A DNA stretch of 64,000 nt from a virus (lineage: Duplodnaviria; Caudoviricetes): positions 10,459 through 74,458 of IMG/VR virus record IMGVR_UViG_2799112954_000004, one strand, 5' to 3'. The notes under the pieces are model-generated. The model worked only from the letters and a program-made list of their open reading frames with translations, was not told the DNA's origin and made no database searches. The position numbers and the translations under genes were made by a program. The stretch's first letter is position 1. Every line of letters begins with the position of its first letter. Below are positions 45,961 to 50,664 of the stretch, in pieces.

Positions 45961-46030
45961 AATGAAATCCCCGTATTGCCGATAGGTCAGCATTTAGAAT
46001 GGCTACCGTTTATAGCAGTAGCCTTTGAGT

Positions 46031-46153
46031 TTAACCTTCGCAGATGATAGCAAGCTGACCGCAAGCGGCACCATTCTCAATCTCTGCCTTTGTTGCAATG
46101 GCTACAGCATAGTCATAGCCCATCTTCTCGAGCATTTTCTTAATTGCTTCCAT
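46031..46153 (-). CDS. 40-aa peptide carrying the RlmN/Cfr C-terminal AACGQL motif (missed by ORF track)
   Basis: MEAIKKMLEKMGYDYAVAIATKAEIENGAACGQLAIICEG; own A/T-rich initiation region. Confidence 0.8.
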   Translation of the reverse strand: MEAIKKMLEKMGYDYAVAIATKAEIENGAACGQLAIICEG

Positions 46154-46212
46154 ACTAATTAATTTTTAATTGAACAATGTTTATAAAATGCAGAATAGTC
46201 TGCGTCTCTTTA

Positions 46213-46998
46213 CTATACTAAATTAACTCCTTCGACAACACCTTTACCGCATCCATTTTTTTCAGACACTTCGTTAGGGTTAATGGGAGACAGCTTCACG
46301 AAGAAATACTCCGGATCGAAATACTTTCTCAACTTATCGCCATCAAAATCGCTCTCGTCGATGAGCGTTAGGTTGATGGTGGTCTTTAGATTGCTCTTTG
46401 TGCGTATCTGCCCAAGTTCCTCAATACTCATCTTCTTTTTCAGTGGGATGAGCCAGTCTCTGTGCTTCTCGTCAAAGCTATGCAAGCTGATCTGCAGCGT
46501 CACATTACCTTCTACAAAAGAAAAGTCGCTACCCTTAATTCCTATGGTTGAAACGTAATGATGGGTGTTAGGGTATTTCTCGGAAATACGCTTAATCGCT
46601 TCTTTGACGGCCTCGATATTCAAGAACGGCTCTCCCATTCTTGTATAATTGATTTTGAACTCCTTAGCATCTAAGGGATTGCAGCCCGCATTATCGATAG
46701 CGAACTTAACTTGCTCTACAATCTCGTCGGCAGAAAGATTGCGCCAGTGCTGTTTCATGTTTCCAGTTGCGCAGAACTTGCAGTGTACCGGACATCCACT
46801 CATGGTTGAGACTCCTATCATCCATCGTTCTGAACGGTCTCCAAGGTTCTCATTATCCAATTTGTTCTGCTTTCTACCAATAGCGTCTTTCGTGTAGTAC
46901 GGCAAGAAGGTGTCGGTGGTCTCAATCAGCTTGCCGTCATCAAGCTCCAGCGCGTATACAACGCCATTCTTAAACTTTTTGAATCTTTTTACTTTCAT
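46213..46998 (-). CDS. RlmN/Cfr-like radical SAM enzyme lacking its C-terminal segment
   Basis: VSTMSGCPVHCKFCATG (CxxxCxxC), RMGEPFLN, LQISLHS, VKLSPINP. Confidence 0.88.
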   Translation of the reverse strand: MKVKRFKKFKNGVVYALELDDGKLIETTDTFLPYYTKDAIGRKQNKLDNENLGDRSERWMIGVSTMSGCPVHCKFCATGNMKQHWRNLSADEIVEQVKFAIDNAGCNPLDAKEFKINYTRMGEPFLNIEAVKEAIKRISEKYPNTHHYVSTIGIKGSDFSFVEGNVTLQISLHSFDEKHRDWLIPLKKKMSIEELGQIRTKSNLKTTINLTLIDESDFDGDKLRKYFDPEYFFVKLSPINPNEVSEKNGCGKGVVEGVNLV

Positions 46999-47010: not shown

Positions 47011-47838
47011 TTAAAGTTGATAGTCAATGCCACATGCCATAGCAAACTGGTTGATATAGTCTCTCACCTGACCTATGACCAATTTGGCGTTAGGGTGAGG
47101 TCTGCCAGTCGTTCCGTAATAACGGAGGTTGATGATATGTTTCCAACGTCTTACACTGTAAGTGTAAACGACTTTTGTGGCTGTGTCGAGAGGGAGGACA
47201 CCACGTGCGTCCTCGGGCTTCACTCCAGCTGCAAGTAACTGAAGATAGATTCCCTCCGAACCTTGCATTGCAGCAAGATATAGCTCACGCTTCTCCGTCT
47301 CTATATCCTCGTCCCAATACCAAGGCTTGCATATTTCCAGTCCGTATTTAGAGGCGCAATAGCGAGTGGAGCGTTCTGCAATGTTGTTTGGGCTCACTCT
47401 GTTCAGCTCTCTGCTTGTACTGATCTGCGTAGTGATGCAGAAAGTCATTCGGTATATATCGAACAGGCTTGGGTCACTTTTACAGAAATTAAGTATCTCG
47501 GCCGGAGAGAATTTCTCTCGAACTTGCTTCTCAAAAGCAAACTGGCCATTGGTGGAGAAATAATAATCACTTTCATCTCCCCAAACAATCGAATCTACAA
47601 ACTCGCTGCGCATACAATCCGGCACTCTCTCACAAGTATAGCTGCCATAGATGGAACTATGCCTTAGCATGCTTACATGGCCACGCTTGATTAAACCGTC
47701 ATATAGCTTATCGTCTTCTTCTCCGGAGTGAAGTTTGCCTTCTCCTCCATAACAGACTCTTGCACATCTTGCAATGTGCTGTGATGGAGCAAGGTCTATC
47801 TCGCTCCAAAACTCAACTTTCGGATCAATCAGTTCCAT
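47011..47838 (-). CDS. thyX: FAD-dependent thymidylate synthase
   Basis: IARCARVCY, GHVSMLRH, SRELNR...AERSTRY, PEDARGVLP, HPNAK. Confidence 0.88.
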   Translation of the reverse strand: MELIDPKVEFWSEIDLAPSQHIARCARVCYGGEGKLHSGEEDDKLYDGLIKRGHVSMLRHSSIYGSYTCERVPDCMRSEFVDSIVWGDESDYYFSTNGQFAFEKQVREKFSPAEILNFCKSDPSLFDIYRMTFCITTQISTSRELNRVSPNNIAERSTRYCASKYGLEICKPWYWDEDIETEKRELYLAAMQGSEGIYLQLLAAGVKPEDARGVLPLDTATKVVYTYSVRRWKHIINLRYYGTTGRPHPNAKLVIGQVRDYINQFAMACGIDYQL

Positions 47839-48448
47839 TTCTAACGATTTTATTATATGCCCATTGGACTGCCTTGATGCTCCACTCGCAATCTGCAAGG
47901 GCGTTATGTACTGTACCTTTGGTATCTATAAGGGAGTATGGGTCTTCTACGTTTGGCTCAAATACACGGGCGGTTTCCAAGAAATAGGTCCTCGCGTCTC
48001 GGACGTTGCGGAAGTGCCAGGGGATGGACTTCTCGTCACCAAACACAACTCGGTAGGCATTTCTCAGCACTGCTATATCGAAGTCGGTTCCTTGCGTCCA
48101 TATCATCAGCTCATCCGCCTTGCTATCCTTTTGCCATTGTTCCAGCCACTCGTTGAACTCTGACAGCACGTATGAGATTGGCTCTCCCCACTCAGTTTTA
48201 AAGTTCTCTTTAGCCTCCTGCTTCGACCACCACTCAATCGTTCCTTGATCGAACGACATACCGTACATTGCGCAAGTGGTAGCGTTGACATTCTTGACGA
48301 AATGAGACTCCGTCTTCTTATCGTCGGTAAACTGCTTAGTCTTGGAACCATCAAGCGTGAACGTCTTTGCAGCAATCTGGATAATGGCTGCTGTGGAGCG
48401 CAAGGACAGCGTTTCCACGTCGACCAACACGTCTAAATACTTTTTCAT
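47825..48448 (-). CDS. DEDD 3'-5' exonuclease/exoribonuclease
   Basis: VDVETL, WTQGTDFD, RNVRDART, HNALAD. Confidence 0.85.
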   Translation of the reverse strand: MKKYLDVLVDVETLSLRSTAAIIQIAAKTFTLDGSKTKQFTDDKKTESHFVKNVNATTCAMYGMSFDQGTIEWWSKQEAKENFKTEWGEPISYVLSEFNEWLEQWQKDSKADELMIWTQGTDFDIAVLRNAYRVVFGDEKSIPWHFRNVRDARTYFLETARVFEPNVEDPYSLIDTKGTVHNALADCEWSIKAVQWAYNKIVRNGTD

Positions 48449-50082: not shown

Positions 50083-50664
50083 CTACAACGAAAGGCCAAA
50101 AGCCTTAATGCACTTCTCGAAAATCGCCTGGCACAGCTCAATGTCGTAATTGGCATTATGGAGCTTATCCTCAGCGACCGTTACTCCAAGGTACTGGGCT
50201 ACCGTGCTCTGCTTGAAGTTTGGCATTTGCGAACGCTTAGGAGCAAGCAAGGCTGATGCAAATATCATACAGTCCATGCTGTCGCTCCAAAAGTAGCTGC
50301 CGAAGTAATGGTTTCCATTCCTCTCAAAGAACGCACGGAAGAAGTCGTTATCAAACCGCACGTTGTTGAAGCCGACCAGGTACATCTTATCGGTCTTATC
50401 AAACTTATTCACGTACTTACTGAGGATGGCCATCACTTGCTTGTACGCCTCGCTTTGAGGCTGGTAGGAGGCAATCTGCCCACGTGTCACATTGCCGATT
50501 CTCAAAGCCTCGTCAGATATTTCGGCACCTGCAAACGGCTGCATGTGGATGTCGAAAGTCTCTTTCACTACTCCGTCAATAATCACCTTACCGGATAACT
50601 GGTGGATGGCGTTTTTCGCACTACTCAGTCCAGTGGTCTCTAAATCATACAAAAAATACTTCAT
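50083..50664 (-). CDS. DnaQ-like 3'-5' exonuclease
   Basis: YDLETTG, VGFNNVRFD, HNANYDI. Confidence 0.9.
   Translation of the reverse strand: MKYFLYDLETTGLSSAKNAIHQLSGKVIIDGVVKETFDIHMQPFAGAEISDEALRIGNVTRGQIASYQPQSEAYKQVMAILSKYVNKFDKTDKMYLVGFNNVRFDNDFFRAFFERNGNHYFGSYFWSDSMDCMIFASALLAPKRSQMPNFKQSTVAQYLGVTVAEDKLHNANYDIELCQAIFEKCIKAFGLSL

Follow-up and report, generated by a model that had tools for sequence, protein, structure and literature searches.

A conserved phage gene pair separates an RlmN-like radical SAM core from its methyl-carrier cysteine segment

Introduction

How could a radical SAM protein of the RlmN/Cfr kind work with glycine in place of one catalytic cysteine and the other on a separate 40-aa product, or is such a gene pair simply a broken RlmN? 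RlmN is the C2-methyl synthase of 23S rRNA A2503 and tRNA A37, and Cfr is the C8-methyltransferase of 23S rRNA A2503; an RlmN mutant without the second cysteine is the textbook trap of an enzyme on its RNA. A pair of conserved cysteines defines the class A radical SAM methylases, and resolution of the protein–RNA crosslink depends strictly on C118, the equivalent of C105 in Cfr (PMC9692996). C118 is described as a general base, and deprotonation of C2 or C8 triggers radical fragmentation of the crosslink (PMC9692996). A full-text search of the published literature found no description of a two-piece RlmN-like phage system. Here we analyse such a pair from a crAss-like phage and its relatives.

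Results

Locus of the pair

The window, the whole 64-kb stretch of DNA that was analysed, is a crAss-like phage contig whose top cultured relative is Kehishuvirus 'tikkala' (72% amino acid identity). It belongs, as contig C95, to a 2.85-Mb metagenome-assembled genome; the canonical, GC-rich RlmN of the same assembly (L086) lies on a different contig. A megablast comparison of the locus with cultured phages gave no match. The pair and its spacer occupy the following positions:

46213..46998, minus strand: radical SAM core, 261 aa, an ORF with VSTMSGCPVHCKFC, MGEP, SLH and VKLSPINP
46215-46213, minus strand: stop codon (TAG) of the core
46154..46212, minus strand: AT-rich spacer of 59 nt between the core stop and the peptide ATG (62 nt with the stop)
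46203-46190, minus strand: weak hairpin GCAGA..TCTGC within the spacer, followed by a T-rich run
46031..46153, minus strand: peptide ORF, 40 aa (MEAIKKMLEKMGYDYAVAIATKAEIENGAACGQLAIICEG), with its own ATG; homologue of the RlmN C-terminal segment

The start codons of the two ORFs are separated by 845 nt, so the core and the peptide are read in different frames. Re-reading the locus confirmed, from an earlier sequence-only reading, the coordinates, the motifs, the gap of 62 nt with the stop counted in and the change of frame. The peptide gene is present as a single copy in the whole assembly. ThyX lies directly upstream of the pair, and its other neighbours are two 3′–5′ exonuclease genes and genes for DUF551, DUF6527 and DUF2958 proteins; the surroundings of the pair in the window are made up of accessory or nucleotide-metabolism genes. 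There are no tRNA genes in the 64-kb window, and at only 8 of 69 loci do the flanks contain any.

An RlmN/Cfr-like core without the resolving cysteine

The core carries the cluster motif CPVHCKFC at residues 69–76 (Cys69, Cys73 and Cys76; CX3CX2C) and matches PF04055 with an E-value of 1.8e-9, Radical_SAM and Fer4_12 being the only Pfam domains detected. TIGR00048, the RlmN model, matches at E 8e-22 and 77.6 bits, below its family cut-off of 290. Cfr (TIGR04432, NF000424; PDB 9P0P) matches at E 1e-12 to 1e-14, and its models score 47–52 bits, below cut-offs of 468–550. The solved structures that rank highest by phmmer are those of RlmN (6fz6, 4pl1, 5hr6 and 3rf9) and Cfr (9p0p). The RlmN/Cfr-like pattern that had been read from the motifs is thus borne out by the TIGR00048 match and the top structural matches, and on the strength of these profiles the core is RlmN/Cfr-like, yet not a member by curated threshold. 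Residues 40–248 also match phrog_24834 (E 9.7e-17; profile positions 45–273 of 336), a family that has no functional annotation.

The alignment to TIGR00048 begins only at profile position 67–102, and residue 1 of the core already falls within the RlmN-type N-terminal beta extension. The core has neither the N-terminal helical (HhH-like) RNA-binding domain nor the C-terminal cysteine loop. It does possess a C-terminal tail of its own that is conserved in an alignment of diverse cores, with N248 and N259 nearly invariant. The net charge and pI of the cores showed no pattern dividing split, fused and canonical types.

In RlmN, Cys118 is seven residues ahead of the first cluster cysteine, the position that Gly62 occupies here. 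The alignment to 4pl1, a C118A mutant, places the glycine of 'WMIGVSTMSGC' on the alanine of 'ATLAVSSQVGC' and upholds the assignment of glycine to the Cys118 position. Gly62 and the three cluster cysteines are invariant in 18 diverse cores, among which we found no other conserved cysteine; a resolving cysteine elsewhere in the core was considered and rejected on this ground. The cysteine of the terminal NGCGKG motif had been put forward as a possible resolver. It is excluded by close relatives: in proteins 79% identical to the window core, its extra cysteines (NAGC and NGCGKG) are replaced by KAGA and NHLGTG, and only the cluster cysteines are invariant.

The peptide is the detached RlmN C-terminal segment

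The 40-aa peptide corresponds by homology to the final helix, strand and methyl-cysteine loop of RlmN, with Cys31 within GAACGQL. A single peptide is too short for phmmer, which returned only chance matches when the 40-aa sequence alone was compared with PDB sequences, and the homology therefore emerged only with a profile. Built from 15 sequences, this profile is colinear with residues 306–341 of 350 in the RlmN of the same assembly (MEQLRDYLTAHGIFTTIRASRGEDIYAACGLL; hhalign E 0.005), and aligns with residues 285–316 of 347 in the fused relative P0187 (E 4.6e-7), whose C terminus is 50% identical to the peptide. As judged from these alignments, the split point separates the final helix–strand–cysteine loop of RlmN from the last barrel strand.

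Residues invariant in the 15 peptides include A16, V17, A18, A20, T21, E24, G28, A30, C31, G32 and Q33. Across 16 crAss-like peptide ORFs, pN was ~0.10 and pS 0.57–0.92, for a pN/pS of 0.14. From these substitution patterns, the peptide ORF is a real gene under purifying selection, with synonymous sites nearly saturated. Profile homology and pN/pS together bear out the proposal that the methyl-carrier cysteine segment is a separate gene. A universal second peptide cysteine was also considered and rejected, the variants being confined to single clades (C38, in ..AIICE, in that of the window and ACGQMC in L101–L108). The peptide tail is acidic, and the corresponding RlmN tail is basic. Because the core also lacks the RlmN RNA-binding domain, an RNA target is not assured.

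The split is conserved across diverse phages

The two-gene layout is present in 75 of 80 close IMG/VR viral loci. In at least two of the close loci (L008 and L082) the sequence ends before the place where relatives have the peptide, and in L040, L072 and L076 the peptide is absent and the locus has a degraded look. More distant loci were retrieved with an alignment query (A5), the single-sequence queries P0138 and P0166 having given 2 and 0; 21 of 22 of these Gly-type viral loci have the two-gene layout, and one more holds a truncated copy. Among Gly-type loci from genome assemblies the figure is 44 of 46. Only 50 of 185,579 species genomes have a match, and these are probably mostly metagenome-assembled genomes that include phage contigs.

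Five cultured phages carry the split. The peptide has 43 aa in Kehishuvirus and 40 aa in Moorella phage MTATph1, whereas in Vibrio phage D479 the ORF has 93 aa and comprises two near-identical modules in tandem. In both Pectobacterium phage Arno18 and Yersinia phage P778, the peptide bears a C-terminal extension and its ORF is found one or two genes downstream. Placement varies likewise across the loci, from ~10–120 nt downstream of the core to 1–2 kb downstream with intervening genes, or upstream (L111 and L174). The gene orders, all of adjacent genes, are core–peptide, peptide–core, core–rSAM2–MT–peptide and peptide–rSAM2–core–MT, where rSAM2 is a second radical SAM gene and MT a methyltransferase gene. 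Such variation in position among relatives is incompatible with a lesion, an assembly error or a frameshift site. Conservation across phages was the check proposed in the sequence-only reading, and both the split and the cysteine-to-glycine change are kept in very different phages; its counter-scenario of contiguous homologues, with the split as a private lesion or assembly error, fails since both features are widely conserved.

Fused relatives and the wider family

We surveyed the best 150 family representatives at 50% identity and placed 76 rows in a quick maximum-likelihood tree (IQ-TREE, SH-aLRT support only). Three groups were resolved. The first has cysteine at position −7 and a fused GGCGQ loop, and contains canonical RlmN and short phage forms (SH-aLRT 99). 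The second has Ile, Val or Asn at −7 and a fused GSNCGQ loop with a single cysteine (SH-aLRT 98). The third is a Gly clade (SH-aLRT 91) that holds the split family, fused Thr-type proteins (P0187 and P0239, with AACGQ), which branch within or next to the split clade, and a cellular subgroup in which the helix and strand are retained but the cysteine loop is absent. None of the three groups matched any named NCBIfam family above cut-off.

Cysteine at the C118 position pairs with a fused C-terminal cysteine loop, and glycine with a separate peptide; within the Gly clade, by this survey, glycine and a separate peptide coincide almost without exception. Since a large fused clade keeps the cysteine loop without C118, loss of C118 is not tied to the split alone, and on the tree it is older and wider than the split. 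The presence of a loop-less cellular sister group suggests that chemistry in the clade may have drifted from methyl transfer.

In P0129 (315 aa; two Logan contigs) the peptide module is joined in frame to the N terminus of a core, a natural fusion that argues for a physical link between peptide and core. Its module order is permuted relative to RlmN. The joint MAFFT alignment A3 put core N termini on the peptide segment, and alignment A4 was used for folding. The AF2 model of P0129 (pLDDT 82, pTM 0.83) contains the peptide helix (residues 2–9) and a short paired strand (residues 15–17, DSSP E) at pLDDT 60–80, with the cysteine loop below pLDDT 50, and its top Foldseek matches are RlmN (6fz6/4pl1/5hr6) and Cfr (9p0p). 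That P0129 and the T-type P0187 and P0239 occur as natural fusions indicates that the peptide need not be free and exchangeable.

Partner genes

Roughly half of the crAss-like loci also hold, tightly packed within the module and in shuffled order, rSAM2 (220–280 aa; cluster spacing CX11CX2C, CX5CX2C or CX3CX2C) and a small class I methyltransferase of 145–160 aa. Both partners also occur in distant T4-/FelixO1-like clades (L105, L110, L111 and L221/222), and both were absent from the window and the whole assembly with the queries used. At L078, L079, L081 and L098 the second radical SAM gene is of another kind (288–332 aa), and the 239-aa radical SAM gene that adjoins P0129 has no BLASTP similarity to rSAM2.

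Over its whole length, the rSAM2 model (pLDDT 81) most resembles MoaA and viperin, whereas its likeness to the peptide maturases SuiB and SkfB is confined to the N-terminal part of the fold. MoaA and viperin act on nucleoside triphosphates, and the kinship of the fold points towards nucleotide chemistry. A search of the ESM Atlas with rSAM2 gave only unnamed viral radical SAM clusters. Genes of NAD salvage (NAMPT, NMNAT-Nudix and nicotinamidase-like) flank the module in about 7–8 of 42 core clusters, a neighbourhood that may merely reflect accessory-gene islands.

Discussion

Proposed mechanism

We propose, at a probability of roughly 0.6, that core and peptide form a two-piece class-A-like radical SAM enzyme with an exchangeable cysteine peptide. 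From its sequence, the pair appears to be a branch of the class A radical SAM methylases (RlmN/Cfr) that is specific to phages. By homology to RlmN, the helix and beta-strand of the peptide would dock on the core where RlmN's own C-terminal segment sits, setting Cys31 beside the SAM-bound [4Fe-4S] cluster. One SAM would then S-methylate Cys31, and a second would give rise to a 5′-deoxyadenosyl radical that takes hydrogen from the S-methyl group. The S–CH2 radical so formed would attack an sp2 carbon in adenine or a comparable base, carried by a nucleotide or nucleic acid. For the last step, given that no second cysteine is present, we prefer a route in which some other base would resolve the adduct, or the core would play no part in its resolution. 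If another base or an external group took over this task, the peptide would end as a thiyl or thiol and be exchanged; otherwise the adduct would persist. The peptide would serve in this scheme as an exchangeable, possibly sacrificial co-substrate, with the core turning over on fresh peptide. A detachable peptide would allow core turnover either way, which could account for the coincidence of glycine and split, and the tandem modules of phage D479 would fit a need for more peptide than core.

Comparison with known systems

The pair shares with RlmN (TIGR00048; 3RF9/3RFA, 4PL1, 5HR6/5HR7 and 6FZ6) the CX3CX2C core, the beta extension, the IET, MGEP and SLH motifs and the methyl-carrier segment with its helix–strand–AACGQL arrangement. 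RlmN carries the methyl-carrier cysteine (C355 in E. coli) in the same chain, whereas here it is on a separate 40-aa product; RlmN also has Cys118 and an N-terminal HhH domain, in contrast to the phage core with its glycine and no HhH domain. Cfr has the same class A fold, and the two-step methyl-cysteine chemistry that we propose by homology is also that of Cfr; its two cysteines are in one chain, whereas the phage system has neither in the core. Nothing in the data on the phage pair favours C8 over C2, or antibiotic resistance.

The fused phage and metagenome RlmN-like proteins (~300–320 aa) are likewise short cores without an HhH domain and come from phage-rich sources, but hold the cysteine loop in cis where the phage pair holds it in trans. 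Among them, the C-type, with examples in Stenotrophomonas phage ANB28 and Salmonella phage Arash, keeps both catalytic cysteines. The ANB28 gene sits amid tRNA genes. As in PqqA/PqqE, SuiA/SuiB and SkfA/SkfB, a small peptide gene adjoins a radical SAM gene, and by analogy with such radical SAM RiPP systems the peptide probably binds by strand addition. Unlike a RiPP precursor, with its leader and variable core, the phage peptide is conserved from end to end and is part of the enzyme's own catalytic apparatus, detached from the rest.

Alternative readings

The chemistry might instead halt at the methylene-bridged adduct, as the sequence-only reading chiefly suggested, making the pair a ligase that joins the peptide to an adenine of RNA or DNA; such an adduct could tag or block a molecule of the host or the phage, and the split would spare the core at each event. 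RlmN C118A traps exactly such an adduct (PDB 5hr6/5hr7 and 4pl1; PMC9692996), neither core nor peptide has a conserved second cysteine, the loss of C118 to glycine coincides with a separate peptide, and phage D479 encodes two tandem peptide modules. We nonetheless regard this as possible rather than probable, for the numerous fused relatives without C118 (the I/V/N GSNCGQ clade, the T-type and P0129) would then be suicide enzymes. C118 is now called a general base (PMC9692996), and another residue or water could replace it. If its role is that of a general base, another base could in principle substitute, and together with the fused relatives that lack C118 this weakens the logic by which the adduct must be trapped. 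A more specific and considerably more speculative variant would have a consumable 40-aa peptide welded through a methylene bridge to a target adenine, in NAD/ADPR-derived or oligoadenylate signals, as covalent counter-defence; NAD-salvage neighbours and a MoaA/viperin-like partner suggest that the target could be an adenine nucleotide immune signal, but we find this variant improbable.

That the peptide is instead a substrate, modified into a bioactive peptide or a peptide-derived cofactor in a RiPP- or cofactor-like pathway, is about equally doubtful. Such a reading would suit a small peptide gene that neighbours one or two radical SAM genes plus a methyltransferase gene in shuffled order, the part of the rSAM2 fold that resembles SuiB and SkfB, and the D479 tandem modules, which recall multi-core precursors. 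However, the whole peptide, cysteine loop included, is homologous to an enzyme C terminus, and GAACGQL is nearly unchanged across great distances. No RRE/PqqD or SPASM domain was found in the core (Pfam), the full-length match of rSAM2 is to MoaA/viperin with the maturases matching the N-terminal part only, and the minimal system, as in the window, has no tailoring genes. A broken gene or artefact, whether a frameshift, an assembly error, a decaying RlmN or a programmed frameshift that rejoins the ORFs, might be suspected from two ORFs in different frames 59 nt apart and from the few degraded-looking relatives without the peptide (L040, L072 and L076). It is scarcely credible against a split seen in more than 100 independent loci, with spacers from ~10 nt to >2 kb, intervening genes and upstream peptides, a peptide ORF with its own ATG under purifying selection, and a core that owns a conserved C-terminal tail (N248 and N259).

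Significance

With the C118 equivalent lost and the first cysteine on what would be a detachable peptide, the design of the two-piece enzyme is kept in many phage lineages, which infect Gram-negative, Gram-positive and anaerobic hosts. With two genes and ~300 residues the system is compact, and it is present in cultivable phages, the carriers being:

Kehishuvirus tikkala
Arno18/Wc4
P778
D479
MTATph1

The pair would imply either a resolution route that has not yet been described or purposeful covalent peptide–base adducts, and both are of interest; the ligation reading, if true, would be a new kind of enzymatic peptide–nucleotide or peptide–nucleic-acid ligation. The system may point to a modification of RNA, DNA or nucleotides that serves phage–host conflict.

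Gene neighborhood of the split module

In the window, the core gene of the split RlmN-like module is preceded by a ThyX gene and two exonuclease genes:

47011-47898, minus strand: ThyX gene, ending 12 nt upstream of the core
47825-48448, minus strand: Rv2179c/RNase T-like 3'-5' exonuclease gene, just upstream
50083-50664, minus strand: second Rv2179c/RNase T-like 3'-5' exonuclease gene, just upstream

With the listed TTG start, ThyX and the next gene share 74 nt, which makes a real ThyX start further inside the listed ORF probable. Moorella phage MTATph1 and locus L100 likewise have ThyX or a thymidylate synthase near the module. On the other side of the module, an apparent inverted repeat read from the sequence (GGCTAC, 11 nt, GTAGCC; 46001-46023, minus strand) sits between the peptide stop codon and the ATG of the following gene (45993).

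Optional radical SAM partners

Some relatives carry an optional two-gene cassette within the module, composed of a second radical SAM protein and a class I methyltransferase of 145-160 aa (L022:3780-4968; further examples at L007, L075, L105, L110, L111, L174, L187, L191-L203 and L221/222). The cluster spacing of this second radical SAM protein is CX11CX2C, CX5CX2C or CX3CX2C, and modeling places MoaA and viperin as its nearest predicted folds. The order of the cassette genes relative to core and peptide is shuffled from clade to clade; with the queries used, the cassette was absent from both the window and its assembly. At other loci, a different second radical SAM gene lies between core and peptide, encoding 288-332 aa (L078:4125-4991, L079:4234-5100, L081:4555-5553 and L098:5778-6665) or, beside the fusion protein P0129, 239 aa (L093:1005-1724). 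BLASTP detected no similarity between this protein and the MoaA/viperin-like one.

Natural rearrangements of core and peptide

P0129 (L093:44-991) is a natural fusion in which the peptide module is joined in-frame to the N terminus of the core, an order that is circularly permuted relative to RlmN; the fusion is present on two contigs from two runs. Vibrio phage D479 encodes a peptide ORF with two near-identical tandem modules, each with an AACGQM loop (L003:2300-2581). The core itself is interrupted in P0127 (601 aa), where an intein with Hint and LAGLIDADG domains splits it directly after the cluster motif, and in P0115 (438 aa) an HNH_3 endonuclease domain precedes it, both signs of homing elements aimed at the core gene.

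One cellular subgroup within the Gly clade (P0188, P0196, P0203, P0235, P0252 and others; locus L095) retains the C-terminal helix and strand (..GF.YA.R) and lacks the Cys loop. Pyruvate kinase and GreA genes adjoin one example, and the one contig inspected, 3.5 kb long, yielded no peptide gene.

Functional context

Of 42 core clusters, about 7-8 have NAD-salvage genes immediately next to the module (L084, L077/L179, L101, L103-L109, L217, L219 and L174). They comprise NAMPT/NadV, NMNAT-Nudix/NatV and an isochorismatase/nicotinamidase-like gene, and at L105 the module is flanked by NatV on one side and NadV on the other. This adjacency could reflect a functional link, or merely a common accessory or counter-defense island.

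In Stenotrophomonas phage ANB28, the fused sister type that keeps both Cys residues is encoded within a phage tRNA gene cluster (Ile, Pro, Leu, Thr and Ser), a location that hints at tRNA as the substrate of this sister type.

The contig carrying the window's phage, C95, was binned in a bacterial metagenome-assembled genome (G000; 87% complete), of which another contig, C78, encodes a canonical RlmN of 350 aa that retains the two catalytic Cys residues (L086:1504-2556). Because this genome has its own canonical enzyme, the phage two-gene system does not stand in for a missing host RlmN.
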